Positions 1 to 53,925 of a stretch of 58,947 nucleotides of DNA are shown piece after piece. The stretch is from a virus. The DNA is taken from positions 1-58,947 of IMG/VR virus record IMGVR_UViG_3300045988_154888; one strand, given 5' to 3'. Under the pieces are notes generated by a model that did not search any database, was not told where the DNA came from, and saw only the letters and a list, made by a program, of their open reading frames with translations. A program made the translations under genes and the position numbers. Every line of letters begins with the position of its first letter. Position 1 is the stretch's first letter.

Positions 1-56
1 ATACTACTCGTGCGTATAGCTGTCAATACAAAAAATACGAAATTTTGAACTTTTTA

Positions 57-2583: not shown

Positions 2584-2853
2584 CTAAAGGTCAATGATTT
2601 CTCCGCTTTCGCACCACGAATCGAAGCGGGCGCGAATATCTTCTTCCAGCCCTTCCCACGGAATTACGCCGCGAACAACACGGATGCGGATGTCATATTC
2701 CCGAACGCCTAAATCCGTATCGTATTCGCAAAGAACGGGGGATAGGTAAACATCAACCGTTCCGTCCGGCTGTTCATCAATGGCATAGAATTTTCGGTCT
2801 TGCTCCGTGGGGCGGTCTCGTGGGTTGTAATGATGCGTGACGTTATCTATCAT
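2584..2853 (-). CDS. Hypothetical protein
   Basis: 89-aa ORF, same strand, 4-nt overlap with the upstream ORF. No recognisable motif. Confidence 0.4.
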   Translation of the reverse strand: MIDNVTHHYNPRDRPTEQDRKFYAIDEQPDGTVDVYLSPVLCEYDTDLGVREYDIRIRVVRGVIPWEGLEEDIRARFDSWCESGEIIDL

Positions 2854-3254
2854 TCTTCAGCACCAGCACTTCCCTTTTCAGCGGCAGGGCTCACAGGCCA
2901 CTGAATATCGAAGGGGAATCCTTCCTGCTTCGGCAGGTCGCGCAACGCCTGTCTGTATATCGCCCAATCGCCCGTAAGCGCCTCGCCAAGCGTGTGAAGG
3001 AAGCTCAGCCATGCGGTAAACGATGTGCCTGACGGAACAGTAAGCCCAAGCCTGTCAAGCGCGACTTCCGCATCGCTATCCCTAAGAAGCCGGTTTCGAA
3101 TCGTCCGCGCAATTTCAGCCGCAGTTTCCGCGTCTCCGTTGGCAATCGCCGTCCCAAGCGCCTGTTCTTGCATCTCCGGCAGTTCCGCAAGCTGCTTATT
3201 GGTCATGGCTTCCGCTCGTGCAATCCTTTTCTGCCATCCGACTACAACATTCAT
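2850..3254 (-). CDS. Hypothetical protein, possibly tail-fibre assembly/chaperone-like
   Basis: 134 aa. Overlaps the RT stop by 4 nt. The segment IRNRLLRDSD resembles the Caudovirales tail-fibre assembly protein motif. This is weak evidence. Confidence 0.35.
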   Translation of the reverse strand: MNVVVGWQKRIARAEAMTNKQLAELPEMQEQALGTAIANGDAETAAEIARTIRNRLLRDSDAEVALDRLGLTVPSGTSFTAWLSFLHTLGEALTGDWAIYRQALRDLPKQEGFPFDIQWPVSPAAEKGSAGAEE

Positions 3255-4342
3255 TTTTTCAATACCTCCCGAATCAATTTGTTGAGATAGGCTTCCATCT
3301 GAATAACAATGCCGTGCGTATTTCCACGCTCTGCATTGGCTTTCCAGCTTTGAAAATTTGTGCGCATATCATCCAGCGTGCATTTACCGTCAAGCACCCT
3401 CCGCTGGAGCTTTTTCAGCTTCCGGCGCTCTTTGGCAATGGATTGCTTGCTCATCCGGCGAACCACTTTACCGCTGCCGGTAAGGATGAAACGCCATTTG
3501 AGGAACATCACGCCCTGCTTGAGCGGATGGATATGCGTTTTTGCGTTCAGCGTAAGGCCAAGCCGCGCAAGCCTCTCCGTAATTTGCCGCAAACATTCTT
3601 CCAGAAATGCCTTGTCGCTGTGAATGAGGATGAAATCGTCCATATAGCGGATGTAATACTTTACGCCAAGGCGTTCCTTCACCCAATGGTCGAAGTCATC
3701 CAGCAAGGCCAGCTCCACAAGCTGTGAAACCTGACTGCCAAGGCCAATGCCTTTATCGCCGCCAAAACTGTCAATGATTTCTGCCGCACGGCGATATGCC
3801 TCATCATCTGGCACGCGCTTACGCACGGCAGCCTTTGCGTCCTCATGCCGGGTTTCGGCGAAGTAGTGATGGATGTCGCATTTCAGCACCCAGCCATTGG
3901 GGCCATGGTGGCGATAGTAGCGGTGCAGGTGCGTATCCATCCTGTTGAGCGCATCATCAACACCCTTCCCGCGCTGGCAAGCACAGTTGTCGCGTAAAAA
4001 GCTGCGCGTAATCTGCGGATAAAGGATGTTATCGCACAAGCTGCGTTGAAACTGCCTGTCTTTAATGCGTGTAGCGACAATTTCACGTTCCTTCGGCTCG
4101 TGAATCGTGAAATGTTGGTAGGCATCAATGGCGTATTTATCTGCCAGCAAACTGCGACGCAGCTTATAGGTGTTTTTCAGCGCATTGGCATGGTAAGTAG
4201 CGACGCTATCCTTCCATTTCACATTGCGGCTGCTCTTGCACAGGCCCTTATACAATTCGCCGAACGATATTGCGCTTTCGTACTCTTGTCCCATAAAAAG
4301 AACCGGCGTGGATAGCAGTAACAGCTCGAATGCTGACTGCAT
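3251..4342 (-). CDS. DGR reverse transcriptase
   Basis: 363 aa. Has the RT motifs, including the DGR-typical LGSQVSQL ([ILV]GxxxSQ) and the catalytic YMDD. Sits immediately downstream of the TR and avd. Confidence 0.9.
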   Translation of the reverse strand: MQSAFELLLLSTPVLFMGQEYESAISFGELYKGLCKSSRNVKWKDSVATYHANALKNTYKLRRSLLADKYAIDAYQHFTIHEPKEREIVATRIKDRQFQRSLCDNILYPQITRSFLRDNCACQRGKGVDDALNRMDTHLHRYYRHHGPNGWVLKCDIHHYFAETRHEDAKAAVRKRVPDDEAYRRAAEIIDSFGGDKGIGLGSQVSQLVELALLDDFDHWVKERLGVKYYIRYMDDFILIHSDKAFLEECLRQITERLARLGLTLNAKTHIHPLKQGVMFLKWRFILTGSGKVVRRMSKQSIAKERRKLKKLQRRVLDGKCTLDDMRTNFQSWKANAERGNTHGIVIQMEAYLNKLIREVLKK

Positions 4343-4410
4343 CGCCGGTATGTGTTCCCCCTTTCAAGCCGGGGAAGGTCGAACGCTCCTTGTGTGAGCG
4401 CACGGATTTC

Positions 4411-4435
4411 GGCGGCAGGGATTTCCCCTGCCGCC
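4411..4435 (-). other. 10-bp GC-rich hairpin in the TR-RT spacer (candidate structural part of the DGR RNA)
   Basis: ggcggcaggg-atttc-ccctgccgcc is a perfect inverted repeat with no U-run. Lies between the TR and the RT start. Confidence 0.6.
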
Positions 4436-4460
4436 TACTTTAAGCTGGCATTCTCACAAT

Positions 4461-4569
4461 CTGCGGCCGCGCCGTTACCGTTCGACGCATTGTTGTTGTT
4501 CAACGAGCCGTCCGGGTTGACGTTGCGCACGTTGTTCGCGTTCCACGGGTTGGGCGAGCGCATCCACCA
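4461..4569 (-). repeat. DGR template repeat (TR)
   Basis: 109 nt, non-coding, between avd and RT. Aligns without gaps to 5148-5256 and 35070-35175. The coding-strand reading is AAC-rich (WWMRSPNPWNANNVRNVNPDGSLNNNNASNGNGAAAA). Confidence 0.9.
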
Positions 4570-4605
4570 CGAGGCAGAATAGCTTACAGCGTTCGGCCTT
4601 ATGAT

Positions 4606-5070
4606 TCAATCACCCTGCGCGGGTGCGGAACCATCCATGACGGCGGCGGTTCTTCCTTCTCCAATGGATTTATAGCGTTCTCGGTCGCTCTTGCGCCAGC
4701 CTTTGAGCTTGTCCTCTACTTCAAGGATGAGGCCAGTCCAATATTCTACACGGTCAGATTCGATGCCCAATTCCGTATAGGCGATGTCAATCAAAGACAG
4801 CAACGCTTCTGCGTGGGAAAAGGCTTCGACCTGCTGACTGCGCCGGTAGGCATAGTCCTCCGGCTCAACAACCCTCACGGCGTTTGCCCTGCGAATGCAG
4901 GTCATAACGGCAAGCGCTTCGTTGACAATGGGCTGCGTGAGAATCCATCTATCGCGCTTTGGAAAGTTTTTCTCATTTTTGCAAATGGTGATGGTGTATG
5001 CGCACATTTCCCGCACCTTCGGCAGAATTTCAAACTTTCCGGGCTGACGCTTTGCTTTAATGACGCTCAT
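4606..5070 (-). CDS. avd: DGR accessory variability determinant (Avd, four-helix-bundle protein)
   Basis: About 154 aa, basic, with FPKRDRWILTQPIVNEAL... resembling the Avd / 23S-rRNA-IVS protein family. Located between the target gene and the TR. An alternative start at 5088 is possible. Confidence 0.75.
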   Translation of the reverse strand: MSVIKAKRQPGKFEILPKVREMCAYTITICKNEKNFPKRDRWILTQPIVNEALAVMTCIRRANAVRVVEPEDYAYRRSQQVEAFSHAEALLSLIDIAYTELGIESDRVEYWTGLILEVEDKLKGWRKSDRERYKSIGEGRTAAVMDGSAPAQGD

Positions 5071-5095
5071 AGAACTGCCTTTCTGCATTCAAAGC

Positions 5096-5124
5096 ACATC
5101 CGCGCCCTGAACGGGCACGGATGT
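5096..5124 (-). promoter_or_regulatory. GC-rich hairpin 3' of VR1 (DGR target-recognition cruciform candidate)
   Basis: acatccgcgccc / gggcacggatgt stem with 1 mismatch and a 5-nt loop. Starts about 24 nt beyond the VR1/IMH end. Confidence 0.6.
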
Positions 5125-5130
5125 TATGGA

Positions 5131-6342
5131 TTAGTAGATTACGCAAGCTGCGGCCGCGCCGTAACCGTTCGACGCAGTGCCGTAGTACAAAGAGCCGTCC
5201 GGGGTGACGATGCGCACGTTGCTCGCGTCCCACGGGCTGGGCGAGCGCATCCACCAATATCGTGCGGTAGACGGGCTGTCAACATCGTATTTAATGCGGT
5301 CAACCTGCGTCGCGCCATCGTAGAACGGAAGCACGGTTCCCTCTGCGATGGTATCGTTCTTGCCAAGGCCAAGCTCGGTCATACTGAGCAGGAATACCTT
5401 GTCGCGGGTGGTGTAGCTGCCGCCCAGCGTGTCGCTCGTTTCATAGACCGTATTTCTCGCGGTTACGATGTCCACCTCACCAAGCGCGGCGGCAAAGTCC
5501 GGGTCGATGCCGTTAAGGAAACCAGCGACGCTGGCATAGCTCGGGGCCATGTCGAAGATGGTCTGCCGCTGCCACCAGCCGCTTGCAGCGTCGCTGTTGA
5601 GCCATTGCCGGATAGCGCTTTCCTGCCAGTTGTTGCTTCCATAGGCACGGCGCATAATGGAATTGAAGCGGCCAACCGTGTGGACACAATCTGCCTTTGC
5701 GTTGCTGGCCGTGCCAAGGCTCGTACCGCCGCTTGCGGCAGTAACGACAATGCCGGTTTCAAGCACGCTGCCGTCCGCATTGTAGGTCGTGATGGTCGCG
5801 CCGGTAATATTGGCAACCTTGTAATCCGCTGCGTTGGCGTACCACGCTCCGACCTTCGGATGCGTCCAGCCGCCGCCAGCAGGGATAGGCTGCGCAATCG
5901 TAAACTGGTACGTGCCGTCCTCGTAGGTCTGACCGCTGTTGCTGCCCTTATACAAGGTGAAGTTATAGGTTCCAGCGGCCAAAGCGCTGTCGCTGTTATT
6001 TACCCAGAGCAACTCGCTGGCATCCACCTGACGACCGTAGATGACATCGTGCATCAGCAGCGTCATGGTGTGAGCAGTCAGGTCGTTCGGGTTTTTGTGC
6101 ACATCATGTGCAACGACATCAAACAGCAGGCTGCCGCCGCCATACGCCGTATGAGGCACGGAAAACTGTGTGCCAACGGGGAAATAGCGTTTGCCGCCGC
6201 CGCCCTTCACAATCTCCTGCACAGCCGCAAAGCTGTCGATGTTCCAGCCGCTTGCAAGCACCTTTACGAGCGAATTTTGCACTTTCAGCTCGTCAAGAAT
6301 CTGCTGCTGCGTACCCTCGGTGAAAATATTCAGGTCAGACAT
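5131..6342 (-). CDS. DGR variable protein 1 (C-type-lectin-fold, tail-fibre-associated receptor-binding candidate)
   Basis: Start chosen at ATG 6342 (GGAGG at 6351-6355), just after the upstream stop at 6347. The C-terminus WWMRSPSPWDASNVRIVTPDGSLYYGTASNGYGAAAACVIY carries VR1. Confidence 0.85.
   Translation of the reverse strand: MSDLNIFTEGTQQQILDELKVQNSLVKVLASGWNIDSFAAVQEIVKGGGGKRYFPVGTQFSVPHTAYGGGSLLFDVVAHDVHKNPNDLTAHTMTLLMHDVIYGRQVDASELLWVNNSDSALAAGTYNFTLYKGSNSGQTYEDGTYQFTIAQPIPAGGGWTHPKVGAWYANAADYKVANITGATITTYNADGSVLETGIVVTAASGGTSLGTASNAKADCVHTVGRFNSIMRRAYGSNNWQESAIRQWLNSDAASGWWQRQTIFDMAPSYASVAGFLNGIDPDFAAALGEVDIVTARNTVYETSDTLGGSYTTRDKVFLLSMTELGLGKNDTIAEGTVLPFYDGATQVDRIKYDVDSPSTARYWWMRSPSPWDASNVRIVTPDGSLYYGTASNGYGAAAACVIY
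5148..5256 (-). repeat. DGR variable repeat 1 (VR1)
   Basis: 109 nt aligned to the TR with 13 mismatches. 12 of them are at TR adenines on the coding strand (T on the plus strand). Confidence 0.9.
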
Positions 6343-6346: not shown

Positions 6347-8029
6347 TTATCCCTCCGTTTGTGCTGTCTGTTCCATCCCTGCGATGGTGTGCAGGGATTC
6401 GTTAATAGACGCAAGCTCCTGTGCAATGAGATTCGCCAGCGTCTTGGTGGCGAAAGTCGAAGTGGCGGTGTCCGTTTCGTCATCCGGGTTGACGTAGCTG
6501 ATAATCAGTTCGTCATTCTCGCCGCGAGAAAAGCTGAATCCGTTCAGGCTGCCGCTGCCACCCATGCCGTTTTCGACAAGCTGATTGAGCAGGGCAAGCT
6601 CCTGCTGCATGACGGCGAGAATCTGCTGCGCGGTAGGCTCTTTGGCGATACTCTGCACAAAGCCCTCCACGGCTTCCTGCGCTTCCTGTGCGGCAGACGC
6701 GGAGTTGGAAGCGGCGCTGGCGCTGCCCTCGGCGCTGGTGGCGCTGGTAGTAGCGGAATTCACCGCAGATGTAAGCGCAGCCTGACGGATGTTCTCCGTC
6801 GCAACGCGGTTGCTTTCCGCAGCGGCGCGTGCCTGTTCAGCTTGCGAACGAGCAGTTTCCGCGATTTCGCGGTCGCTCTCTGCATTCACGCGGGCGGTTT
6901 CGTTGGAAACTCGCGTTTCCTCTGCCGTATCGCGGGAGGTTTCGGCGGAAATGCGGGAGTTTTCCTTGGAAACGCGCTCAGATTCATCCTCAATGCGCTT
7001 GGTTTCCGCTGACTTTCTGGCATTTTCGTTCGCAACACGTTCCGCTTCGGCTGCAATTCGGGATTCTTCGTTTGCCTCACGAACAGTTTCGTTGCCGTCC
7101 TGCGCTATTTTCTTCAAATCGGCAGACGCGGCCTGAACCGCTGCCAGAATATCCTTTGCCGTAGGCTCTTTGGCAATGGTTTCGACCATCGCTTCAACGT
7201 CATCCTGCACAGCTTCGGCGGCAGCGGCGGCAGTCTGAGCATCCGTTGCGTGCTGGGCGGCTTCGTTCGCACTCGTAGCGGCAGCAGCAGCTTTGCTGGA
7301 AGCAGCAGACGCAGAATTTCCAGCGCTTGTGGCGCTGGACGCTGCGCCGGTTGCACTGGTTCCGGCATTCGTTTCGGACTTTTTCGCCGCATCACGAGCG
7401 GCCTCGGCGGCAGTTTTGGCCGACGCTGCATCGCCAAGATTCTTGACGGCGGTATCTGCCTTTTCAGCCGCTGTGGAAGCATCTTCTGCGGCATCATTTG
7501 CGGCAGTAGCGGCGCTATTCGCGCTCTGCGTAGCCGTGTTCGCAGAAGCAATCGCCGCGTTGGCATCCTTTACAGCTTGCTGTGCCGCCGTGGCTGCGGC
7601 CTCGCAGTCCTCCACTCGGCCAAGCAGCTCGTCAATGCTGGGAATCGTCTGTCCAGGGTCAACATACTGATTCGGCAGCGGCTCACGCACTGTGAAAAAG
7701 GATTCACAAGCCGACATGACCTCGCCGTCCTTTGCGATTTTGAGCACGCCGCGTAGCTGACCGGCAATCGCATAGCATTCCTGCGACAAGGTAACGCTGG
7801 CAACGTTCCCGGAAACCTGTCCAACGAGATAAACCGCATTGCCGTCATCGCGGGCAAACCATGCGTTGACGGTGCAGCCGGTCAAATCGACTGGCTGGCC
7901 GTTGTTCCTGACCTCGATTTCCCAAACGTGCGCCTTGCCGTCACCGGGAATCATCAGTGCTTCCTGCCAGACGTTTACATCAGGGAAGCCGCGAACAAGG
8001 TCAACCGCCTGTTTGATAGTCCAATTCAA
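6347..8029 (-). CDS. Tail fibre / baseplate upper protein (BppU-like N-domain, long Ala/Glu-rich coiled coil)
   Basis: 560 aa. The N-terminal ~120 aa resemble BppU_N. The remainder is low-complexity helical repeats typical of fibre shafts. Confidence 0.6.
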   Translation of the reverse strand: MNWTIKQAVDLVRGFPDVNVWQEALMIPGDGKAHVWEIEVRNNGQPVDLTGCTVNAWFARDDGNAVYLVGQVSGNVASVTLSQECYAIAGQLRGVLKIAKDGEVMSACESFFTVREPLPNQYVDPGQTIPSIDELLGRVEDCEAAATAAQQAVKDANAAIASANTATQSANSAATAANDAAEDASTAAEKADTAVKNLGDAASAKTAAEAARDAAKKSETNAGTSATGAASSATSAGNSASAASSKAAAAATSANEAAQHATDAQTAAAAAEAVQDDVEAMVETIAKEPTAKDILAAVQAASADLKKIAQDGNETVREANEESRIAAEAERVANENARKSAETKRIEDESERVSKENSRISAETSRDTAEETRVSNETARVNAESDREIAETARSQAEQARAAAESNRVATENIRQAALTSAVNSATTSATSAEGSASAASNSASAAQEAQEAVEGFVQSIAKEPTAQQILAVMQQELALLNQLVENGMGGSGSLNGFSFSRGENDELIISYVNPDDETDTATSTFATKTLANLIAQELASINESLHTIAGMEQTAQTEG

Positions 8030-8046: not shown

Positions 8047-10512
8047 CTAATAATTGCCACCGCTATAAGAGGTGACAAACGTCTGCACAAAAAGATTGGC
8101 CTCGATTCTGGAAAGGCCATCAGGAATGATTTTGATTTCATGCCATGTTCCGCGCTGAATCTTTCCGTTGGAATCCTTGGAAAGATACTTCACAATATCC
8201 ATTTCATCCGCAGACAGGTCTGCCGCAGGAATATCCGTGCCATCTACGTTGATGGAAACGCTTTTAGCCGTGTTCCCCTCGTAAATGCCATAAATGATTT
8301 CGTGGGTGTGTCCCTGAATCGTAACCGTGTGCGAATGGTCTGGAATAGAAACGCTATGCGCGTGGCTCGGAACCTTGAGTGTAATCGCCGGAATCGTAAT
8401 CACAGCGACCACATTGTGACTATGGCTGAAATTGTGGACGTGTCGCATATCATGGGTATGCACGCCTCCATCGCCGGTGTTGTTCTTTATCGCGCCAGCA
8501 TAATAGGCATAGCCGGTATCGCTGGTTCCTCCTGCATTGGTAGTAAGGCTTTTCGACGATGTTTCAACGTTTCCACCTTCCGCAGTAGAGGTGTGCGCAT
8601 TGCCGGACGCATACACGGCGTTCCCGGTTAAGCCGCCGCCACCAGAGTTCGTAGTCAGGGCAGTCGAGCTTGTCTTCCCGGTTCCCGCAGAGCCTGTAGA
8701 GCCAGTACCAGCCGCGCCGGTTGTGCCGCTGATTTTCACCGTATGGGTGGCGTTTGTGGAAACGCCCTGCGAGGTTACGGTCGTGCCGCTTGCCTTGCAT
8801 GTGACCTTGTGCGTATGTCCGTTCGCAATACTTTGGCTGCCGGAAAAGCTGTGCGTGTGCGACGGGCCTGAATGCGTGTGGCTGGGGCCGCTATGCGTAT
8901 GCCCATCAATCGTGTGGGTGTGCACCGGAGCGGAATGATAATGCCCAAAAATATGGCTGTGAGAGCCTCCAGTATGGGAATGGGCATCAATCGTATGCGT
9001 ATGCGACGGACCCGGATGATGGTGCTGCATGGTGTGGTTATGGGCTGCGCATTCCCCAGTTTCAGGTTTGCTGTTGCCGTTATAATCACGGGCATAGCCT
9101 GTGTTGCCGCTGGTATCGCCTTGATGCCCGGCAATCGTACCGCCAGTCGAGGCTTCGGTCGTAACAACGCGCTGTTCAGCCGTAGCCGTCGTGGCGCCGC
9201 CAGCCGAGCTGGTTCTTTCACTTCCTCCACCGGCCGATGTAGTGGAAACGGACGCGCCGCCAGCGGAAGCGCCTGTCTCATAAGCTCGAAATGCGCTCAA
9301 CCGCCATGAAAGCAGCATCTTGTTGATTTTCTTGCACTCGGAAGGAACATAGACGCGCATGGATGCCGGATGGTTCGTATCTGCGTTGTCCGCAAACTGC
9401 TGGGCGTACAGATTGGTCGCGCCTTGCGAATACTGCGCCGTAATAGCGGCTCGCTTTGACAAATCCTCGATTGCGCTCGAAACGTCGGAGGACTTATTGC
9501 TGATGGTGATGTCCATATCCAGTGGGTCTCCATCGACATCAGATTTCGCCGCCTCGATAATCATCGCGTCGAGGTCGATGCCCTTTTCTTCATCAATCAG
9601 ATGGACGTATTTGCCCTCGTCGAACGAGTGCCAGTCCAGCCCCGTGATTTTGGAAAGGTCAATCGCCTTGGCCTTATAGGTGTAGCGGGGATGCTTGATT
9701 TCTTCCAGCACGGCACGGCCTTTGGCGAGCAGCGTTTCCGGCTCGGTGATTTGCAAATCAATGTAATGGCTGCACAGCACGCCATATAGGGAAATAGTGT
9801 CTGCGTCGATATACGGCCTGCCGCCATTCACTTCTGCGATGCCGACCTGATTTACACCCTCGCCGCTGCCTTTGCAGTACAGGCGCGTACACAATGCAGA
9901 CGAATCCTTTTCACGCTTGATTTGCTGCATGTTCCGCTTCCGGCGAATTTCACACGACCTGTCCTTATTCTGCCGGACAAGATTGACAGTCCACGGATAA
10001 GAATCCGTATCAAACGTCCAATGGTAATCGTCCGCAAAACAGGTCGGGATGGAATACAGCGCATCCAGCAGATTGGTGTTCTCCCATGAATACTGGAATT
10101 GATAGTTGAAATCACATTTTCCGAGCTTCCATCGCTTTACCGTCTGACGGGAAAGGATATTTTCAATAACGGCACGGGTTGAAACGCCCGTGCCGCCAAT
10201 CTCCAAATAGCCGTCAATCACATCGTTCAGCAGGAAAGCAATGACGTGTTCACAGGAATATTTCAGGAACTGCCCTGCGCCTGTAATATCAGTTTCCGGC
10301 TCATCGAGAATGCGGTACTTGCCCTTGCTGACTTCTCCATCAAACACATCAACGATGAAATGCGTGTCACACAGCGCCGTTTTCGGGTCATCATACGGAA
10401 GTTCAAACGAGGCCGTGAACAGGTCGTTGTGCGGGCGTACATAGCCGACAGCAGTCGCATTCTGCAAGATGCCGACCAGCTCCATGCTGCGGTTATAAAT
10501 TCTCGGTTTCAA
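8047..10512 (-). CDS. Tail-associated lysin/tail tip protein (prophage tail endopeptidase-like N-terminus) with His-x-His-rich C-terminal region
   Basis: 821 aa, directly after Dit. N-terminal region resembles siphovirus Tal. About 17 HxH motifs fall in aa 490-568 and 685-737. Confidence 0.7.
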   Translation of the reverse strand: MKPRIYNRSMELVGILQNATAVGYVRPHNDLFTASFELPYDDPKTALCDTHFIVDVFDGEVSKGKYRILDEPETDITGAGQFLKYSCEHVIAFLLNDVIDGYLEIGGTGVSTRAVIENILSRQTVKRWKLGKCDFNYQFQYSWENTNLLDALYSIPTCFADDYHWTFDTDSYPWTVNLVRQNKDRSCEIRRKRNMQQIKREKDSSALCTRLYCKGSGEGVNQVGIAEVNGGRPYIDADTISLYGVLCSHYIDLQITEPETLLAKGRAVLEEIKHPRYTYKAKAIDLSKITGLDWHSFDEGKYVHLIDEEKGIDLDAMIIEAAKSDVDGDPLDMDITISNKSSDVSSAIEDLSKRAAITAQYSQGATNLYAQQFADNADTNHPASMRVYVPSECKKINKMLLSWRLSAFRAYETGASAGGASVSTTSAGGGSERTSSAGGATTATAEQRVVTTEASTGGTIAGHQGDTSGNTGYARDYNGNSKPETGECAAHNHTMQHHHPGPSHTHTIDAHSHTGGSHSHIFGHYHSAPVHTHTIDGHTHSGPSHTHSGPSHTHSFSGSQSIANGHTHKVTCKASGTTVTSQGVSTNATHTVKISGTTGAAGTGSTGSAGTGKTSSTALTTNSGGGGLTGNAVYASGNAHTSTAEGGNVETSSKSLTTNAGGTSDTGYAYYAGAIKNNTGDGGVHTHDMRHVHNFSHSHNVVAVITIPAITLKVPSHAHSVSIPDHSHTVTIQGHTHEIIYGIYEGNTAKSVSINVDGTDIPAADLSADEMDIVKYLSKDSNGKIQRGTWHEIKIIPDGLSRIEANLFVQTFVTSYSGGNY

Positions 10513-23585: not shown

Positions 23586-25123
23586 TATTTGTCACCTTCC
23601 TCGCCTCCATCGCCCTCGCCGTTGCCGGCATCGGGTTTCTCGTAATCGCCCATGAACAGGTTCGGCTCATCCACAGCCTGACCGCTCTCGGTCTTGACGC
23701 GCTCCACTTCCTCCGCAATCTGCTTCTTCGTCCAGTCAGGGTGAAGCATCTGCACTTTCAGCTCGGTGGAGATTGCGGCAGCACGGTTGAGCAGTTCCAG
23801 CGCCGTGGACGTGGTGGAGATGTCATTGGCCATGTTGTCGGCGAAATGCACCTTGACGGCATCCGCGCCCTCGCTGCCCTTTCCGGGATAGAGCGCCGCA
23901 TCCAGATGGACCATCGCCGTCATAATTTGCTCAAGGGGCGATTTCCAGTAGGTCTGCTTCTTACCCTGCGTGTTGAAGGACTTCTTTTCGCGGATGTGAA
24001 GCGCCGTGCCGGACTGTGCGTTTCCGTCGATACCGATGCCGAAGGTCTGCGGGGCGTAGCCCGCGATGGTGACAATGTTCCGTATCAGTTCCGCACAGGT
24101 GGCTGCATGTTCGGCAGAACGGATAGCGAACTGGCTGGGCGTGATGGGATTGCTCCCAGAATGTTCAGGGTCGATGTCCAGTGCGACCAGCGTTTCCACG
24201 TCCTCATCGAATTCGTAGGTGTACTGGTTGTCCTTGAACATATCCGAAGCCTTGCGGCGCAGATACTCGGCAGGAACAATGAGCCGAGCCTTAGCCAGCC
24301 GCACATCGCGCATCCAGCTCGAATAGGTTTCATCCAGCGAATCCATCAGGCCGCGAAGGCCATCGCAGTCTGACCGCCCGTGGACGCTGGTTCTGTCCAT
24401 GCGGTTCGGCCTGATGTTCGGAATATGAACCGCCATCATATCCGCGATGGGCGTTTTCATCTCAGGCTCGAAGCCGAGCTGTTCCAGCATTCCCGTGCCA
24501 TCCTCCGTGCCAAGGTCGGAGGACGAGCCTTTGAACACGGCCATCGTGATTTTGCCGCGCTCGTAGCGCTCGTAAATGCGCCAGACGATATTTTTCTGCG
24601 TATCCCTTTTCAGGATGTCGAAAAAGTGGATGCACTTGAGCACGCCCAGCACATATTCAGGCCACGCGCAATCGCCCTGCGTGATGGTGAGAATAGGGTG
24701 GTCTACATCGTCCGGGCGGCTGCTCAGCTTGAAATACACATCGCCAAGGACGGCGCAAGTTTCGGCGGCCTCGTTCAAGAGGCCATGCACGTTGTTGAGC
24801 GAAATCAGTTCGTCGAGGCGACGCTGCTTATCGCTGCCATCGTCCTCGGTTTCCTCATCGAAACAGGTGAAGCGCGGTTCCTCGCTGAACAGGAGGTCGG
24901 AGGACGTTGCCGCAATATCGGCGGCAATAGGAACGTGGATTCTGCATTTCCCGTTCCGATACCAGAAGGAGCCTCCCTCTGCCGTGGCCGCAAGCTCTGC
25001 GCGGCCTCCGCTGTAAACGGCTGAATACTTGTGGTAATACCTCGCCTCGTAGGTTCGCAGCTCGTCCCACGCCTGTTTCGGAGTGAGGAACGCGGAAAGG
25101 CTGTTGTCCTGTACGGTTTCCAT
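23585..25123 (-). CDS. Portal protein (SPP1 gp6-like)
   Basis: About 512 aa, after terL. Start at ATG 25123, preceded by GGAGGTG. Confidence 0.8.
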   Translation of the reverse strand: METVQDNSLSAFLTPKQAWDELRTYEARYYHKYSAVYSGGRAELAATAEGGSFWYRNGKCRIHVPIAADIAATSSDLLFSEEPRFTCFDEETEDDGSDKQRRLDELISLNNVHGLLNEAAETCAVLGDVYFKLSSRPDDVDHPILTITQGDCAWPEYVLGVLKCIHFFDILKRDTQKNIVWRIYERYERGKITMAVFKGSSSDLGTEDGTGMLEQLGFEPEMKTPIADMMAVHIPNIRPNRMDRTSVHGRSDCDGLRGLMDSLDETYSSWMRDVRLAKARLIVPAEYLRRKASDMFKDNQYTYEFDEDVETLVALDIDPEHSGSNPITPSQFAIRSAEHAATCAELIRNIVTIAGYAPQTFGIGIDGNAQSGTALHIREKKSFNTQGKKQTYWKSPLEQIMTAMVHLDAALYPGKGSEGADAVKVHFADNMANDISTTSTALELLNRAAAISTELKVQMLHPDWTKKQIAEEVERVKTESGQAVDEPNLFMGDYEKPDAGNGEGDGGEEGDK

Positions 25124-25281: not shown

Positions 25282-26592
25282 CTAAATAATGTATCTGCGA
25301 AGCGGATAGAAGGAATACTCGGCGCTGTCCAGACAGTCCACAGGGTAGGAACCGTCGTCCACGCGCACCCAGTCGCCCTTTGCGAATTCATCCTCTGACC
25401 ACGTTGCCATCTGGTAGGCCTCGTGCCACTTCGCCATGCCGGAGTTGATTTTGTATCGCCCCTGTGCCAGCAGCATGGAGGCCATTTCAATGCGTTCAAG
25501 GATGCCGTCCGACTTGTCAAAGCCGCGCACATCGAATCGGCTCATGCCTCGCCGGATAAGCTCGTTTTTCAGGCCGCGAGTGAACAACTTGGCGGCTGAA
25601 TCCACATAGATGGTGCCGATGCGCGGGTAAACTCGCGTCCACGGGATGAGCCATTCGACAATCATCTTGGCATAGAGCTGCTCGTCCATCTTGTTGTCGA
25701 TGCCCTGCTTGTGGTACATCCCGTCGATGTGGACGATTTTCTCAAAGCCCTGCGTAATGCCGGTGAGCGTGGCGACGGTCGCGTCCGTACCGCCAACGTC
25801 CACGCCGACCGTCAGCTCGGCAAAGTTCATGCGCCGGATTTTCTCTGGGGAAATGGCCACATCCTTGAAATTATAGGACGTATAGATGCGCCCGCTGGCG
25901 CTGGTGCGCTTGCCCAGAATATCCCGCTGATACCAGATGGATGCACGGTCGTATTTGGACAGCGCGTCTCGAAGGGCATCCTGCGGAATGGATTTATTGT
26001 CGAGGATGGTGAAGTGGCCATAATTATAGCCGTCGTTCTTCCCCTGCGCCTTGAGCGTGTCCTGATAATCCAGAAACTCGGCATAGAACCAATGAGACGG
26101 CGGCTTGGGGTTCAAATCGAAAAAGAGCTGGCGCTTACTGCTGGCCAGCGTTCTGTCGATGACCTCCTGAAAGAAGGTCTTATGGCACTCGTTCACCTCG
26201 GTAATATAGGCCGTACCGTAGGAATGGCCTTTGATGAGGCTCGCGCTGCGGGAATCGCCGCCGCCAGCGATGATGACAACCTTCTCGCCGGTGGACGAAT
26301 GGATGATGAGCGCGTCGCGCCCATTGTACTGCCCCATTTTGCAGCGCCCGGCAAAGAACCACTCAAGGCCGAAGCCGTCGCTGTCGATGATATTCATCTT
26401 CGCGGATGACTGCGACACGCCAGCGGCGAGGTGCAGCCTGTCCGGGTGCTTATCCAGCGCCATCGCCCAGCAGATGAGGTTGATGATGTTCTTGCCAGCG
26501 CGTTTACCGCCCTCGGCCACGTTGAGCCATGAACCCTTGGAGCGGCAGATGTACTCTGCCTGGCGCTGACTGAACGGCGCGTAGTTTATCAT
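25282..26592 (-). CDS. terL: Terminase large subunit (PBSX-type)
   Basis: 436 aa. Walker-A-like GGKRAGKN and a C-terminal nuclease-like region. Overlaps the terS stop. Confidence 0.85.
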   Translation of the reverse strand: MINYAPFSQRQAEYICRSKGSWLNVAEGGKRAGKNIINLICWAMALDKHPDRLHLAAGVSQSSAKMNIIDSDGFGLEWFFAGRCKMGQYNGRDALIIHSSTGEKVVIIAGGGDSRSASLIKGHSYGTAYITEVNECHKTFFQEVIDRTLASSKRQLFFDLNPKPPSHWFYAEFLDYQDTLKAQGKNDGYNYGHFTILDNKSIPQDALRDALSKYDRASIWYQRDILGKRTSASGRIYTSYNFKDVAISPEKIRRMNFAELTVGVDVGGTDATVATLTGITQGFEKIVHIDGMYHKQGIDNKMDEQLYAKMIVEWLIPWTRVYPRIGTIYVDSAAKLFTRGLKNELIRRGMSRFDVRGFDKSDGILERIEMASMLLAQGRYKINSGMAKWHEAYQMATWSEDEFAKGDWVRVDDGSYPVDCLDSAEYSFYPLRRYII

Positions 26593-26972
26593 GAGCCGTC
26601 ACCATCCTCGTCCGGCACAAGCACGTCCTCAATCTCAAGATTCGGCACAGGGTTGTTGATGAGGTCTGCAAGGGACTGAACCTGCTCGTTTGCCCGCTTG
26701 GCAGTCTCGTCGTCGCTGTTGTCGGGATAATCCGACTGGCCGAGAATGTTTTTTCCCAAAAAGATGGCCATTGCCGCCGATTTTTCTGCAAGCCTGAACT
26801 GCATTCGCCGGAGAGATATTTTGCCGCCAGACTTCTTTTCGGCGTAAACTTGGGAATATTCTTTCCCATACGTCCGCTTGCACCATCGTGTAAGCGTTTT
26901 ATGGTCAACCTCAAGAAAATCGCATATTTCCTGCTGTGTGCATTGCAGCGCGCACAGCTTTTCGAACTCCAT
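26589..26972 (-). CDS. terS: Terminase small subunit (HTH)
   Basis: 127 aa. HTH segment CTQQEICDFLEVDHKTLTRW. 4-nt overlap with terL. Confidence 0.6.
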   Translation of the reverse strand: MEFEKLCALQCTQQEICDFLEVDHKTLTRWCKRTYGKEYSQVYAEKKSGGKISLRRMQFRLAEKSAAMAIFLGKNILGQSDYPDNSDDETAKRANEQVQSLADLINNPVPNLEIEDVLVPDEDGDGS

Positions 26973-33370: not shown

Positions 33371-33621
33371 TATCGGTAGTTCCTTCCCGTGCGCCTGTCC
33401 CTGACCTCTACGCGGGCGGTCAGTTCAAACCCGGCGAGGTCGATGAGGGTCTTGATGGACTTAATCAGACGGTTACAGCGCAAGTCGGCCTCGTCCAATT
33501 CGAGCTGCTTGTCCCGCATGACGTTGGTGAGCGCGTCATGCGCGGTCAAATCCATATAGCCCTCGGTATTGCGCAGCGGAACGCGCATTTCGTCGCTCAT
33601 CCTCGGATACACCTCCCGCAA
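33370..33621 (-). CDS. Hypothetical protein
   Basis: 83-aa ORF on the operon strand. Confidence 0.4.
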   Translation of the reverse strand: MREVYPRMSDEMRVPLRNTEGYMDLTAHDALTNVMRDKQLELDEADLRCNRLIKSIKTLIDLAGFELTARVEVRDRRTGRNYR

Positions 33622-34142
33622 GATTCAAGCTCGTGACATACGCCGCCGTGCCACAGGCAATTTGGAACCAGAAACTCGGCGATTTCAGGCATGACCTTAG
33701 CCACTTCATCGCACATCATCCCGGCGACCTCCCGCGTCTTTGCGCTGGCCTTGCTGCACAGCCGCTTATTGGCGACGGTCATGAGTTCCTCCGCATTGCA
33801 GAAGAAAATCATATCCACAGGAGTATTTCGGGGCGCTTCGTCGCCGTTCATGCGGTCTTGCCGGTCGTTGCGCAGGCTGGAAACGAACGGGACGGCGTGG
33901 ACATGGCGGGCAAAGTGCGTCGCCGTGTTCGAGGGAATGTTCTCAATCAAAAACGCGAAATTCAGCACGCGCACGGGTGAATGGCGGGCATTGAGAACAT
34001 CCCGCAGGAGCTTCGAGGACGGAGCGGAGACAGGCGCTTCGGTCTTTCCCATCGTAACCCAGATGCAGCGCTTGAACAGCATCAGCTCCCGTTCCTCCGG
34101 CCAATAGATGAGCGTTACCTTGATTTCGGGCTTATTTTCCAC
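33597..34142 (-). CDS. Divergent ThyX-like (flavin-dependent thymidylate synthase fold) protein
   Basis: GTG start at 34142, 6 nt after AAAGGAGGG. HSPVRVLNFAFLIENIPSNTATHFARHVHAVPFVSSLRNDR aligns with the ThyX HETPFEH..F.F....RHRxxS...S.RY region, but the RHR motif is degenerate. Confidence 0.45.
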   Translation of the reverse strand: MENKPEIKVTLIYWPEERELMLFKRCIWVTMGKTEAPVSAPSSKLLRDVLNARHSPVRVLNFAFLIENIPSNTATHFARHVHAVPFVSSLRNDRQDRMNGDEAPRNTPVDMIFFCNAEELMTVANKRLCSKASAKTREVAGMMCDEVAKVMPEIAEFLVPNCLWHGGVCHELESCGRCIRG

Positions 34143-34143
34143 G

Positions 34144-34353
34144 TCAAGCCCTCCTTTCGTATCGCTGAATGGTGCCGTCATTAAATTCGACGGTGATATG
34201 CGGCGGGTACTTCGCACAGACCTTTCGCGGTTTGAACTGTACGGCCTTGATGCGTTTGGGCGTAACATGCTGCTTTTCGCATTCGTCGCACTCTTTTTTA
34301 TCGGCGTAAAGCGTGCCGCAAAACTCGCACTTGTACTGCGTAATTTCCTGCAT
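34144..34353 (-). CDS. Small zinc-ribbon protein
   Basis: 69 aa with CEFCG...CDECEKQH. Confidence 0.5.
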   Translation of the reverse strand: MQEITQYKCEFCGTLYADKKECDECEKQHVTPKRIKAVQFKPRKVCAKYPPHITVEFNDGTIQRYERRA

Positions 34354-35019: not shown

Positions 35020-35042
35020 TCCGCGCCCTGTACGGGCGCGGA
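35020..35042 (-). promoter_or_regulatory. GC-rich hairpin 3' of VR2 (DGR target-recognition cruciform candidate)
   Basis: tccgcgccc-tgtac-gggcgcgga. Starts about 28 nt beyond the VR2 end. Analogous to the hairpin after VR1. Confidence 0.6.
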
Positions 35043-35055: not shown

Positions 35056-35853
35056 TCAGATGACGCAAGCTGCGGCCGCGCCGTAACCGCCCGACGCATA
35101 GTTGCTGTTCAACGAGCCGTCCGGAGTGACGTAGCGCACGAAGTACGCGTACCACGGGATGGGCGAGCGCATCCAGTAGCAGGATTCGTCGCCGCTGGGG
35201 GAATCGGTCTTTTTGCGATTCTCAGGATTTTCGTAGAACGGATACGTCGCGCCCTCATCCTTGATATTGTCGCCGGTAAAGCCCAGCTCGGAAGCGGACA
35301 GAAGGAACAGCTTGTCCTGCGTCGTATACGCTTCGCCGCCCTCATCATCATTGCGGTAGGTGGTCTTTTCGACCCGGCGCATAGCTTCACGGTCGGCCTC
35401 CGGGAAGCCGGAAAGGAAATACTTGTTCAACCAGTTCCGCAGATTGCAGGTATCCCACGCATTGTGGCCCCAGCAGTATTTCTTGCTTGGCGTATCAAAG
35501 GGAAGGTACATATCGTCCAGCACATTGGTCATATGCAGCGTGACGGTCTGGCGCTTCTTCCCGACCTCCTGCCCATCTATGCCAACGCCAATTACCGTCC
35601 AGTCAATATTGCCGAAACGGTTGTGGTGCGAAATGATGCGGTCGCCTACTTTGAGATTGATGCTGCCATCATCCAGCAGGCTGCTCATTTCGGCAAGGCT
35701 CTTGCAGTACACGCAGTCCCAAGCCTTCTGGGCGATTTCAGGCTCTTTCAGCGCTTCAACGCCCTGCCGGAGCGAATGGAGGTTCTGCTCCAAGCCGGAG
35801 ATTTTTTCAAGCATGACCTCTTTGACCTGCTCAATGCTCATCATACTTTCCAT
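35056..35853 (-). CDS. DGR variable protein 2 (small C-type-lectin-fold protein, remote target)
   Basis: 265 aa. The C-terminus YWMRSPIPWYAYFVRYVTPDGSLNSNYASGGYGAAAACVI carries VR2. The central region (NLRNWLN...LFLLSASELG) is paralogous to target 1. Confidence 0.85.
   Translation of the reverse strand: MESMMSIEQVKEVMLEKISGLEQNLHSLRQGVEALKEPEIAQKAWDCVYCKSLAEMSSLLDDGSINLKVGDRIISHHNRFGNIDWTVIGVGIDGQEVGKKRQTVTLHMTNVLDDMYLPFDTPSKKYCWGHNAWDTCNLRNWLNKYFLSGFPEADREAMRRVEKTTYRNDDEGGEAYTTQDKLFLLSASELGFTGDNIKDEGATYPFYENPENRKKTDSPSGDESCYWMRSPIPWYAYFVRYVTPDGSLNSNYASGGYGAAAACVI
35070..35175 (-). repeat. DGR variable repeat 2 (VR2)
   Basis: 106 nt aligned without gaps to TR 4461-4566. 13 mismatches, 12 of them at TR adenines on the coding strand. 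Confidence 0.9.
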
Positions 35854-37310: not shown

Positions 37311-37724
37311 CTACATATCGAAAATCGAAACGTCCATTCTGGGCATATCGTCGTACCGTTTGGAAATCTCCGTGTATACGATTTGCCGGTCATCGTTGTA
37401 CGCAACGCCGTTGAGCGCATCGGCAACCACCTTGCATACGTTATCAATATCAGGCTTCTTGGCCGGGCGAATCTCTCCGTCTTTCATCCGCTGCCGCTTT
37501 GCCTTGCTGACAGACTTCGGGATGGAGAAATACGCGGTCACACGCAGCCCAATTTCCCGTTCACCAAAGGAAAGACCAGATTGGCGCTCATACTCGACCT
37601 TGATGAGATTCTCATAGGAGACCGTTTTGCCCGGCGTGTAGGCCGTGACAAAGGAACCCTGCCGGGAGAATCGCGGTCTGCCTTTTCCGACCGGCTCTCC
37701 GGGAACCGTAAAATGAACCTCCAT
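37311..37724 (-). CDS. rusA: RusA-family Holliday junction resolvase
   Basis: VPGEPVGKGRPRF...KKPDIDNVCKVVADALNGVAYNDDRQI matches the RusA hallmarks. Confidence 0.85.
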   Translation of the reverse strand: MEVHFTVPGEPVGKGRPRFSRQGSFVTAYTPGKTVSYENLIKVEYERQSGLSFGEREIGLRVTAYFSIPKSVSKAKRQRMKDGEIRPAKKPDIDNVCKVVADALNGVAYNDDRQIVYTEISKRYDDMPRMDVSIFDM

Positions 37725-37745: not shown

Positions 37746-39131
37746 TTACGCTTCTGCATTTCGTTCAATCGGGTAATACCGCATGTGCTTGGAATCGAAC
37801 AGCACACAGGCTTTGCCCACCGCGCCCTGACGCTGTTTTGCCACGCCGATGCAGATATAAGTGAGTTCGCGCTGTTCGTACAGGTCGAAATACTCTCTGT
37901 CTCTTGGGTCAACGTAGGGGTCTTGCGAGCTGGATGGGCGGTGCAGGAAAATCACGCCGTCTGCATCCTGCTCAATATCGCCGGACGCTTTCAGGGATTT
38001 CAGCGTCGGCATTTGTCCGTCCGTATCGCGGTTGACCTGCGCCAGCGCGATGATGGGAATATTGAAATCCGTCGCCATGTCCTTGAGCGACTTGGATATA
38101 TAACCCACACGAAGGTGTTCTTCCTTGATGTTCTTCGCAGTGTGCATGAGTTGCAGATAGTCCACGATGAGCATGTCCAGCTCGCCTTTTTCGACCATAC
38201 GCTGGCACTCCCGGCGTAAATCCTCCACCGTGCGGGTGGTGAACAGAAACTGAATGGGCAGGTTGGCCAGCGGCGAAACCACGTCGGCGATGCTGCACCA
38301 ATCTTCTTCGGTCAGTTCGGCGCGGCGCAGCTTCATTCCATCAATCAGCGCTTCGTGAGAAATCATGCGCTGGCCAAACTGCACGTCCGTCATTTCGCGG
38401 GAAACGACGGCAACCTTGAAGCCCTTTTTCGCGGCTTCCAGCGCGATATTTGCGCCGAACGCAGATTTGCCAACGGACGGGCGAGCGCCGATGACGGTAA
38501 GCTCGCCGCCAAAGAAACCGCCGATGAGCGCATCCACATTGGAAATGCCTGTGGTGATGGATTTTTCTTCGCCCTTTGCCCGCCGCTCAAGGTAGTCATA
38601 GGTCGCCATCATCACATCGACCATCGTCTCGACCTTATGCCCGCCAAGCTCGATGTTTCGGCTTTCGGTGCGGAGCTTTTCAAGCACGGCGTTCAAATCC
38701 TGCGACGGGTCACGAAGCTGGTTGATGACTTCTTCCACCGAGCGAATACTTTGCCGTCGAGCAGACAGCTCTTTCACGATTCGAATATAGCTTTCGATGT
38801 TCTGAAAGCTGAAACTCCCATGGAGACATGCCAGCATAGCGTTGGAAACCGCAGCGCTCTCGGAAGCGAAAAGCTCTGAAATGGTCGCGTCAACCGTAAC
38901 AAGGTCAACCTGCAAGCCCTTGGTAACTGTCGCTTGAATGGCGCGGAATACCTTCCCGTACTCAGGGTAGTAAAAATCGCCCTCGGAAATCTGGGACAGG
39001 ACGGACGAAACGTCCTCGCCCTTCGTCAGCAGGGAATACAGAACGCTTTCCTCCGCTTCCTGCGATGCAAAGTTTTTGCCACCGGCCAGCATGACCTGTT
39101 CGGCGACATAATTGTTATCGGCCATTTTCAA
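37746..39131 (-). CDS. dnaB: Replicative DNA helicase (DnaB family)
   Basis: 461 aa. Walker A GARPSVGKSAF plus DnaB N- and C-domains. Confidence 0.9.
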   Translation of the reverse strand: MKMADNNYVAEQVMLAGGKNFASQEAEESVLYSLLTKGEDVSSVLSQISEGDFYYPEYGKVFRAIQATVTKGLQVDLVTVDATISELFASESAAVSNAMLACLHGSFSFQNIESYIRIVKELSARRQSIRSVEEVINQLRDPSQDLNAVLEKLRTESRNIELGGHKVETMVDVMMATYDYLERRAKGEEKSITTGISNVDALIGGFFGGELTVIGARPSVGKSAFGANIALEAAKKGFKVAVVSREMTDVQFGQRMISHEALIDGMKLRRAELTEEDWCSIADVVSPLANLPIQFLFTTRTVEDLRRECQRMVEKGELDMLIVDYLQLMHTAKNIKEEHLRVGYISKSLKDMATDFNIPIIALAQVNRDTDGQMPTLKSLKASGDIEQDADGVIFLHRPSSSQDPYVDPRDREYFDLYEQRELTYICIGVAKQRQGAVGKACVLFDSKHMRYYPIERNAEA

Positions 39132-39968: not shown

Positions 39969-40757
39969 TTACGCCATCACGACCACGTTACAGCCGTACA
40001 GTCCATTCTTGAGATATTCGGCAATTCGCGCAACCGCCGTATTCTTCCAAGCGCCGCCGTCTGCTTCAAACAGCGCGGCATTCGCCTGTTCGTCGATGCG
40101 CAGGGTGAAATTGCTCTCCGGCTGGTCAACCTCGGCAAAAGTGCGCATGGGCTTGAGGGGGACGGGGTTCTGAAACTGCGTATTGCTGGCGAGCGTAATG
40201 CCCTGCTTAACGGTGATGTTCTGAGAAACGCCGTCATCGCCAACGTTGCAGCTCTGCTCCTTGGTCATGGACTTCATCACCTTGAACAGCTCCGCACGGG
40301 CGGGCGTGTCGATGAAGGTGGAAAGCAGCATGGTATTGAACCGCTCTGTATCCTGATAGCGCCCGAACGTGATTTCCGGGGTATGCGCTCCGCACGAGGC
40401 AATCACATGGCGTTCCTTCTGGTACTTGGAGGGCTTGCCGAGCAGGGCGACGCTCTTTTCGTCCTCCACCATGACGATGAGCTTTTCACCGTCCGGAATC
40501 AACCCTTCAACGTTCTCGTTGATATAGGCGATGAAACCGTCGAGGGTGAAGAAATCAAGCGGCGCGGGCACAGGCTCATCGTCGGGAATGGGCGGCGTGA
40601 TGCGCTCCCACGCCCTGCGATGGCTATTCCAGAACATCTTCGCGCCGTCCACTTCGATGACGGCCTGCTCGTTCTTGTCGTTCGCTTCCTGAATTTCCTT
40701 GCCAATGCCGACGAGCTGTTCAACCAGCTCAGGCGCTCCGTTGAAGAATCCATCCAT
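39969..40757 (-). CDS. Hypothetical protein
   Basis: 262-aa ORF in the recombination/replication block. Confidence 0.5.
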   Translation of the reverse strand: MDGFFNGAPELVEQLVGIGKEIQEANDKNEQAVIEVDGAKMFWNSHRRAWERITPPIPDDEPVPAPLDFFTLDGFIAYINENVEGLIPDGEKLIVMVEDEKSVALLGKPSKYQKERHVIASCGAHTPEITFGRYQDTERFNTMLLSTFIDTPARAELFKVMKSMTKEQSCNVGDDGVSQNITVKQGITLASNTQFQNPVPLKPMRTFAEVDQPESNFTLRIDEQANAALFEADGGAWKNTAVARIAEYLKNGLYGCNVVVMA

Positions 40758-42758: not shown

Positions 42759-42780
42759 CCTTGGCACCTCCTGTAATATT

Positions 42781-51451: not shown

Positions 51452-51687
51452 CGTTTTGCCTCCTGCTTCTGAACGAATTTGTTCCAAACGGCGATGTTCT
51501 CATCCCAGCCACCGAAAATCGAATAGCTCATTCCCCAGCTTGGGGAAAGGCCACAATGCGGGCAGCGAAACCGTCCTTGCACAACAGGATAACCACCGTC
51601 AGCCAGTTTTCCGAGCATAACGCTTCGCATTTCCTTGACAGGGAGTGTGCCGCAAAGGCACGGGGCAATGTTTTCTTCTTCACTCAA
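51448..51687 (-). CDS. Small Cys-rich protein, possibly Lar-like restriction alleviation
   Basis: TTG start at 51687, after AGGAGGGAG. CLCG...CPHCG. Weak assignment. Confidence 0.3.
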   Translation of the reverse strand: MSEEENIAPCLCGTLPVKEMRSVMLGKLADGGYPVVQGRFRCPHCGLSPSWGMSYSIFGGWDENIAVWNKFVQKQEAKR

Positions 51688-52565: not shown

Positions 52566-52609
52566 AGCAGCCCCTTTCTGCCCGTGTAGCCGGTAGCACA
52601 GCGTTGTCT

Positions 52610-53500: not shown

Positions 53501-53533
53501 CAAAAGCCCCTCCTTCATGCCGTTCACAACTTA

Positions 53534-53809: not shown

Positions 53810-53848
53810 AGCTCGTATCCTCCTTGTTGCTTTCCTTTTGACATCTTG

Positions 53849-53877: not shown

Positions 53878-53925
53878 TACAAAAAATACGAAATTTTGAA
53901 CTTTTTTCAAGATTTCGTATTTAAT

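Follow-up and report, generated by a model that had tools for sequence, protein, structure and literature searches.

Does the reverse transcriptase (RT) gene in the tail-fibre module of a phage genome, recorded in IMG/VR as IMGVR_UViG_3300045988_154888, belong to a working diversity-generating retroelement (DGR), and if so, which proteins does this element diversify? The stretch analysed (58,947 nucleotides; hereafter 'the window') had been read, from its letters alone, as carrying on the minus strand a complete element that comprises a target gene with a variable repeat (VR1) at its 3' end, a hairpin, an avd gene, a non-coding template repeat (TR), a structured spacer and the RT gene. All elements named in this original prediction are present at the coordinates first assigned to them or within a few bases, and the evidence collected so far leads us to conclude, with a probability of about 0.93, that the locus is a genuine, complete and evidently active DGR diversifying two proteins which both contain a DUF6273 domain.

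The relation between the repeats is central to this conclusion. A repeat search identified TR and VR1 as a direct repeat of 113 nt (coordinates in Table 1), ungapped and 88% identical, which is longer than had been described. On the coding (minus) strand, 13 mismatches separate the two copies; 12 of these fall at TR adenines, as the original prediction had claimed, and the remaining one is a G>T change (G65>T); with 28 adenines in 113 nt, the hypergeometric probability of such a bias is 6.8e-8. All but one of the 28 TR adenines (27/28) are located at codon positions 1-2, and the TR comprises 11 AAC codons and one AAT codon in the VR frame. Such a TR design, rich in AAY codons, confers maximal amino-acid diversity without creating stop codons. 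Translated in the frame of target 1, the TR reads WWMRSPNPWNANNVRNVNPDGSLNNNNASNGNGAAAD, and VR1 reads WWMRSPSPWDASNVRIVTPDGSLYYGTASNGYGAAAA. Scanning the whole window for TR-like segments, with changes at A tolerated, revealed a second variable repeat (VR2) at a distance of 30,609 nt from the TR, so that the original description, which was limited to VR1, stands for that repeat and has to be extended by another one. VR2 exhibits 13 of its 16 mismatches at TR adenines (P 3.5e-7), and the other differences are C53>T and two changes at the 5' edge, the latter being fixed in all VR2 copies. The stop codons of the two target genes lie 11 nt beyond the end of VR1 and 8 nt beyond the end of VR2.

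Variation among close relatives shows the same signature. Scans of public collections with VR patterns carrying N at each TR adenine yielded relatives of the window at 96.6-98.5% identity, namely a single contig from IMG/VR and several from ENA metagenomes. In the four relatives covering the TR (L001, L003, L004 and L005) it is identical at 113 of 113 positions, where a background divergence of 1.5-3.4% would have led one to expect about 11 substitutions. The VRs of the window and its relatives, in turn, are all distinct (five of five VR1 alleles and four of four VR2 alleles), and each differs from the TR by 6-16 changes at TR adenines and by 0-3 changes elsewhere, with P values for A-specificity ranging from 1.5e-4 to 3e-10 per TR/VR pair. 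Across the nine VRs, variation is found in 31 columns, and TR adenines account for 24 of these (Fisher P 1.8e-14); 24 of the 28 TR adenines vary, from repeat position 6 to position 94. Variation in populations restricted to A had been named beforehand as the test of the original prediction, and it is found here for both targets next to an invariant TR: diversification is ongoing in natural populations.

Consistently, the proteins vary where the TR would encode Asn. Ten protein alleles of target 1, drawn from its 90%-identity cluster after removal of 560-aa sequences, exhibit on average 5.4 distinct residues at the 12 TR-Asn columns and 1.12 at the other 391; two further columns that vary, M365 and D382, match the adenines of an ATG and a GAC codon. 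The cluster comprises 289 distinct sequences, a number inflated somewhat by the 560-aa sequences, which belong to the neighbouring BppU-like fibre. The clusters of target 2 are similarly large, with 241 (distinct sequences at 90% identity), 228 and 244 members. Two VR1 protein alleles (P0001 and P0247) contain one extra residue in a run of four consecutive Asn codons (404 versus 403 aa), so that TR and VR may be polymorphic in length within this group of close relatives. In the loci L006, L007 and L009-L013, which were obtained by scanning metagenomes with a 28-nt pattern, no TR-like 113-mer was found at the threshold used.

Table 1. Positions in the window of the DGR, its two targets, its cis elements and the adjoining tail genes
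Feature	Position	Strand	Basis or remark
DGR reverse transcriptase, 363 aa	3251..4342	-	RVT_1, bRT structure match, PHROG 1423
TR-RT spacer, Sp-like part of the DGR RNA	4343..4456	-	predicted hairpins 4411-4435 (10-bp GC stem), 4380-4404, 4355-4376
TR 3' end: GC tract CGGCGCGGCCGC, then AGATTGTGAGAATG (IMH*-like)	4449..4474	-	differs from both VRs past the GC tract
Template repeat (TR), non-coding	4457..4569	-	repeat search; between avd and RT
Avd accessory protein, 154 aa, four-helix bundle	4606..5070	-	PHROG and fold
Hairpin/cruciform 3' of VR1, ACATCCGTGCCC-GTTCA-GGGCGCGGATGT	5096..5124	-	fold prediction
Target 1, large DUF6273 protein, 403 aa, distal end of tail module	5131..6342	-	DUF6273 E 7.8e-25
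VR1 3' end, IMH-like: CGGCGCGGCCGC + AGCTTGCGTAATCT	5136..5161	-	common to VR2, unlike TR
Variable repeat 1 (VR1), last 37 codons of target 1	5144..5256	-	13 mismatches to TR
BppU_N protein	6347-8029		profile match
Prophage_tail (Tal-type) protein	8047-10512	-	profile match
Hairpin 3' of VR2, TCCGCGCCC-GTACA-GGGCGCGGA	35020..35042	-	fold prediction
Target 2, 265 aa, N-terminal helical segment + DUF6273	35056..35853	-	DUF6273 E 4e-24
VR2 3' end, IMH-like: CGGCGCGGCCGC + AGCTTGCGTCATCT	35058..35083	-	sequence comparison
Variable repeat 2 (VR2), last codons of target 2	35066..35178	-	16 mismatches to TR

The proteins that would operate on these repeats have the expected relatives. The RT matches Pfam RVT_1 (E 1.4e-13) and PHROG 1423 (E 9e-94), and its best match in the PDB is chain A of entry 8ub7 (E 1.6e-19, residues 54-351), which we identify with the bRT of Bordetella phage because the entry is described as 'Diversity-generating retroelement (DGR) ribonucleoprotein reverse transcriptase'. 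The two motifs on which the gene had been singled out, LGSQVSQ (aa 201-207) and the catalytic YMDD (aa 233-236), align with IGSLTSQ and YMDD of bRT, respectively. Relatives of the RT found by tblastn in deposited phages, namely in nd12 (41% identity), FP_Brigit (37%), Lelie (36.5%), nd4 (36%), FP_Toutatis and the Bordetella phages, are the RTs of phages reported to carry DGRs, and the closest relatives in species-representative genomes (53-62% identity) are from metagenome-assembled genomes labelled Clostridia, Acutalibacteraceae, Oscillospiraceae and Ruminococcus. The gene between target 1 and the TR, proposed to encode an Avd-like four-helix bundle, is assigned with E 6.8e-24 to PHROG 3206 ('Avd protein of DGR'), and its AlphaFold2 (AF2) model (pLDDT 85.5) consists of four long helices which Foldseek superimposes on Avd of Bordetella phage BPP-1 (4dwl_D; TM 0.84, r.m.s.d. 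2.4 Å, probability 1.0) and on the Avd chain 8ub7_E (TM 0.80, probability 1.0). Its start at position 5070 is backed by homologues beginning with MSVIKAKR.

How the element might recognise its two target sites is indicated by the sequences at the 3' ends of the repeats. The GC tract CGGCGCGGCCGC is common to TR, VR1 and VR2; past this tract, both VRs read AGCTTGCGT(A/C)ATCT, whereas the TR reads AGATTGTGAGAATG. Likewise, AGCTTGCGTMATCT is common to VR1 and VR2 and missing from the TR, and at repeat position 109 the A of the TR contrasts with a C in nine of nine VRs. In BPP-1, an asymmetry of this kind, between the initiation of mutagenic homing sequence (IMH) of the VR and the IMH* of the TR, makes retrohoming one-directional. 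At each VR a hairpin lies 27 or 28 nt past the GC tract, and the TR is devoid of it. The one next to target 1, which had been noted as a GC hairpin, has a loop of 5 nt and a GC-rich stem of 12 bp, of which one is a G-T pair, and is kept in L001 and L003-L005; the one past VR2 has a 9-bp stem, with sequence and spacing nearly as in the former. The same cis layout (GC tract, GCTTGYGTAATC, hairpin) recurs in divergent phages that encode small-target homologues (L046 and L049), in which the stems are of other sequence, TCAGCGCCC/GGGCGCTGA and TCTGCCCCA/TGGGGCAGA, respectively, and compensatory changes preserve the pairing. An identification of the post-VR hairpins as plain intrinsic terminators was rejected, since they have no T tail and the terminator scan flags neither of them. 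The GC tract, the IMH/IMH*-type difference and the downstream hairpin are arranged alike at both VRs, and these cis elements may act in retrohoming. The spacer between TR and RT is structured, as had been proposed: it folds with a predicted energy of -25.2 kcal/mol (z -2.8) into three hairpins, and its sequence is kept in the relatives except for one loop change. By likeness to BPP-1, the spacer may play a role in priming.

The large target is assigned to DUF6273 by Pfam (PF19789; 88.1 bits, gathering threshold 23.5), and its AF2 model (pLDDT 94.5, pTM 0.91) places the VR residues in short β-strands (363-402). A Foldseek search of the PDB with this model yielded a single significant match, 9qa6 (E 8.9e-10), an IgA peptidase from Thomasclavelia ramosa of which the DUF6273 N-terminal domain is the matched part (PMC12402451); similarity to C-type lectins is weak (probability ≤0.2). 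Among predicted viral structures (BFVD), the model resembles a tail-collar fibre protein and a receptor-binding protein in addition to numerous proteins with DUF6273, and 1376 homologues were found, some of which are fused to collagen repeats. A match to PHROG 10993 ('Hoc-like') is confined to the DUF6273 part. The genes are arranged in the order tape measure protein (TMP), Dit, Tal, BppU-like fibre and target 1, in agreement with the original prediction that the target follows a BppU-like fibre and a Tal, and a gene resembling tail assembly chaperones (2850-3254) lies beyond the cassette. From this position past Dit, Tal and BppU, target 1 is probably the receptor-binding tip, and gene position likewise suggests that VR1 could serve host-range switching. 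The neighbouring Tal-type protein has a long C-terminal region rich in His-x-His and HTH repeats (e.g. HTHTIDAHSHTGGSHSHIFGHYHSAPVHTHTIDGHTHSGPSHTHSGPSHTHSF), which we take to be reminiscent of the metal-binding HxH repeats in phage fibres.

The small target matches DUF6273 with 85.8 bits (same gathering threshold) and is 39% identical to target 1 in the C-terminal 173 aa only. Its gene is located outside the structural module, between those for RusA (37311-37724) and DnaB (37746-39131) on one side and ThyX (33597-34268) on the other, in a replication module that also encodes RecT (41919-42983). The view that the DGR is embedded in the tail-fibre module thus holds for the cassette and has to be widened for the element, which also diversifies this gene in the replication module, 30.6 kb off. 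Small DUF6273 homologues with 39-54% identity are encoded in L046 (10001-10771) and L049 (10001-10786). Members of the family (~255 aa) lie between RusA and ThyX in L049 and L050, as in the window, and directly past a helix-turn-helix repressor switch, ahead of the replication genes, in the unrelated prophages L046-L048, so that the early or replication-region position is kept in all three phage lineages examined. Inspection by eye revealed neither a signal peptide nor a hydrophobic stretch at the N-terminus of target 2. The function of small targets has been treated as an open question (PMC11792537). One may speculate that target 2 is not a virion protein and represents instead a DGR-diversified binding protein expressed early or in the lysogen, considering its early-region position, the lack of a signal peptide, the N-terminal helical segment and its own IMH-like sequence and hairpin; we regard such a role as rather improbable.

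Taken together, a mechanism akin to that of established DGRs can be proposed. The avd-TR-RT unit would be transcribed, and the RT, bound to an Avd oligomer, would reverse-transcribe the TR RNA with misincorporation opposite template adenines. The mutagenised cDNA would then replace the homologous VR at sites marked by the GC tract, the IMH-like sequence and the downstream hairpin, and such sites are present in two genes, encoding the 403-aa tail-distal protein directly upstream (VR1) and the 265-aa protein of the replication module (VR2). Since nearly all TR adenines occupy the first two positions of the 12 AAY codons (and of ATG, GAC and GAT codons), up to about 12 surface residues per protein could be randomised without generating stops.

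Several observations weigh against a genuine and active DGR: (i) the VRs contain differences at positions other than A (G65>T in VR1, C53>T in VR2 and others in the relatives), for which ordinary mutation or low-level non-A errors are needed, (ii) mapping of reads gave no peak of VR variation in phage Lelie and likewise none, from limited data, in the prophages Lagaffe_CP and CP11 (PMC11792537), (iii) Avd scores below the curated cutoffs of Pfam bAvd (3e-4) and NCBIfam DivGenRetAVD (4.6e-5), (iv) sequence and profile searches of the PDB returned no match for Avd and missed 4DWL, with 4dwl_D found only by fold comparison, (v) a Foldseek search of the PDB with the whole target 1 model did not find Mtd, TvpA or other solved DGR targets of C-type lectin (CLec) fold, and (vi) a single assembly cannot show heterogeneity within a population. 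For this phage, cDNA synthesis and retrohoming themselves are inferred. The first two points are what one would cite for a fossil DGR, in which the parts are still recognisable although function has been lost, and the VR differences would date from long ago: the one non-A mismatch in VR1 and the three in VR2 can be read as decay, and no activity was seen when reads were mapped to related two-target phages. Such a fossil is very unlikely in view of nine VR alleles that are all distinct and differ almost only at TR adenines, with zero changes in the TR among genomes as similar as those recovered, and of an RT, an Avd and two targets which are intact open reading frames, with intact cis elements at both VRs. 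Even less credible, to the point of being nearly negligible, is the view that the RT is of another class (group II intron, retron, or abortive infection (Abi)/defence-associated RT (DRT)) and that the repeat arose by an unrelated duplication of the gene's 3' end. The top NCBIfam match of the RT is indeed a group II RT/maturase (TIGR04416), and PADLOC reports Drt3a (65 bits) and UG4 (64 bits). However, the score for TIGR04416 is 87 bits at a cutoff of 300, those for Drt3a (48 bits) and retron St85 (28 bits) in NCBIfam are far below cutoffs of 200 and 235, respectively, and the best PADLOC model is the generic RT one (114 bits). Among solved structures, bRT is ahead by ten orders of magnitude, the next matches being 8bgj (9.7e-9), a group II maturase (6.4e-7), and group II, retron and Drt RTs at 6.4e-7 or weaker; the SQ-containing motif aligns with that of bRT, an Avd gene and a TR lie directly upstream of the RT, and nothing in the window attains the gathering score of any Rfam family, a set in which group II intron RNA would be represented. 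Moreover, a duplication would not be expected to give mismatches at A only. As originally proposed, the RT thus appears to group with DGR RTs and not with those of retrons, group II introns or Abi systems.

A more serious alternative, although we still consider it unlikely, accepts the DGR as real and concerns what target 1 does: the protein might not bind a receptor and might serve adhesion to mucus or environmental ligands, or another function, rather than host range. DUF6273 is found also in Hoc-like/tentaclin decoration proteins, as reflected by the PHROG 10993 match, and in the secreted bacterial IgA peptidase (9qa6; PMC12402451), and the authors describing related systems leave the function open (PMC10743442, PMC11792537). 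What favours a receptor-binding role instead is that target 1 comes last in the TMP-Dit-Tal-BppU-like fibre-target order, with the chaperone-like gene past the cassette, that homologues are fused to collagen-like fibre segments, and that the BFVD neighbours include tail-collar fibre and receptor-binding proteins.

One close counterpart among known systems is the DGR of BPP-1 (mtd-avd-TR-brt). The two elements share (i) the gene order target, avd, TR and RT, (ii) an AAC-rich TR with A-specific differences, (iii) a GC tract, a 3' end that differs between TR and VR in the manner of IMH* and IMH, and a hairpin past the VR, and (iv) the Avd fold, with bRT being the best solved relative of the RT. 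They differ in that the targets here are DUF6273 proteins without detectable sequence or Foldseek similarity to Mtd, in that the present phage is a siphovirus of Gram-positive gut anaerobes with a second, remote target, and in that its hairpins have stems of 9-12 bp and loops of 5 nt, compared with a stem of 8 bp and a loop of 4 nt in BPP-1.

Also close are the DGRs with two DUF6273 targets, one large and one small, in the Faecalibacterium phages Lelie and CP11 (PMC11792537) and in Toutatisvirus, where the second target lies 17.5 kb from the TR (bioRxiv 10.1101/2024.10.15.618418). Across cognate genomes of CP11, adenine-specific variation was reported at both VRs (PMC11792537). In Lelie, we located the TR at 24482-24610 and two VRs, one in orf31 (26511-26639) and the other in orf58 (40449-40555), which encodes 215 aa. 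In all of these phages, as in the window, two DUF6273 proteins, one large and one small, are served by a single TR, each with its VR at the C-terminal end of DUF6273, and the small target is remote (16 kb in Lelie, 17.5 kb in Toutatisvirus and 30.6 kb here). Lelie, however, is a myovirus with the order avd-TR-RT-target and a tentaclin/Hoc-like large target, whereas the window represents a siphovirus with the BPP-1 order and, as its large target, a tail protein with a C-terminal VR that probably sits at the tail tip. These differences are of membership, not of kind. BLASTP revealed no similarity between target 2 and the small target of Lelie (E 1.1), and orthology with the published small targets is therefore not claimed. 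The gut phages nd4 and nd12 likewise carry a DGR with two DUF6273 (C-lec-like) targets, and their 'target2' type has the VR at the 3' end, like both targets here (PMC10743442). In their target1, by contrast, Ig-like domains come after a VR that is located close to the 5' end (PMC10743442), and neither target of the window is so built; furthermore, a DUF6273-similar region begins ~70 nt past the RT in nd4, compared with 30 kb away here. Tentaclins are characterised by an N-terminal C-lec/DUF6273 domain with the VR and by at least one subsequent Ig-like domain ending in a consensus anchor domain (PMC10743442). Both targets of the window carry DUF6273 and the VR at the C-terminal end, and Pfam detected no Ig-like domain in either, so that the tentaclin layout is not present.

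As to the phage itself, the first and last 30 nt of the window (1-30 and 58918-58947) are identical and the contig of a relative (L001) spans the junction, so that the window represents a circularly closed (or terminally overlapping) genome of 58,917 unique bp. Its genes for an integrase, terminase, SPP1-type portal, capsid, tape measure, Dit, Tal-type protein, BppU-like fibre and GH25 endolysin are those of a temperate siphovirus; the phage is uncultured and belongs to gut Clostridia. Megablast did not reveal a match for the cassette at the DNA level among 50,697 deposited phages. Downstream of the RT, ~540 non-aligning nt in L004 (6313-6854, versus 2798-3262 in the window) replace the chaperone-like gene, which is a local mosaic swap adjoining the DGR cassette. 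Elsewhere in the genome, a direct repeat of ~90 nt with 98.9% identity (53817-53906, and 58883-58947 running on into 31-55) brackets ~5 kb, with a DUF4942/methyltransferase gene at 56175-57866; the repeat could stem from the duplication of a regulatory region or delimit a cassette that was inserted. The minus-strand gene at 52610-53527 encodes a zincin metallopeptidase with a fused ArdC-like anti-restriction domain at the N-terminus and adjoins the gene of a DUF5131 protein (51684-52565), and the region 51684-53527 (minus strand) may represent counter-defence cargo.

DGRs are very common in gut phages. Those which diversify two DUF6273 proteins and have a remote small target have already been published, with Lelie, CP11 and Toutatisvirus described since 2023-2024, and the present element adds a siphovirus with BPP-1 order to the gut phages that diversify a large and a small DUF6273 protein from one TR. 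It is also well suited to asking what marks a DNA site as a target for retrohoming, with all cis elements legible at two separate sites: what the two VRs have in common is just the GC tract, an IMH-like sequence of ~14 nt and a hairpin that keeps its spacing. Neither of these two aspects will surprise specialists. Finally, if target 2 should turn out to act on the lysogen or within the cell, perhaps through recognition of a factor that varies in the host or in a competitor, the DGR of this phage would diversify a non-structural phage protein.

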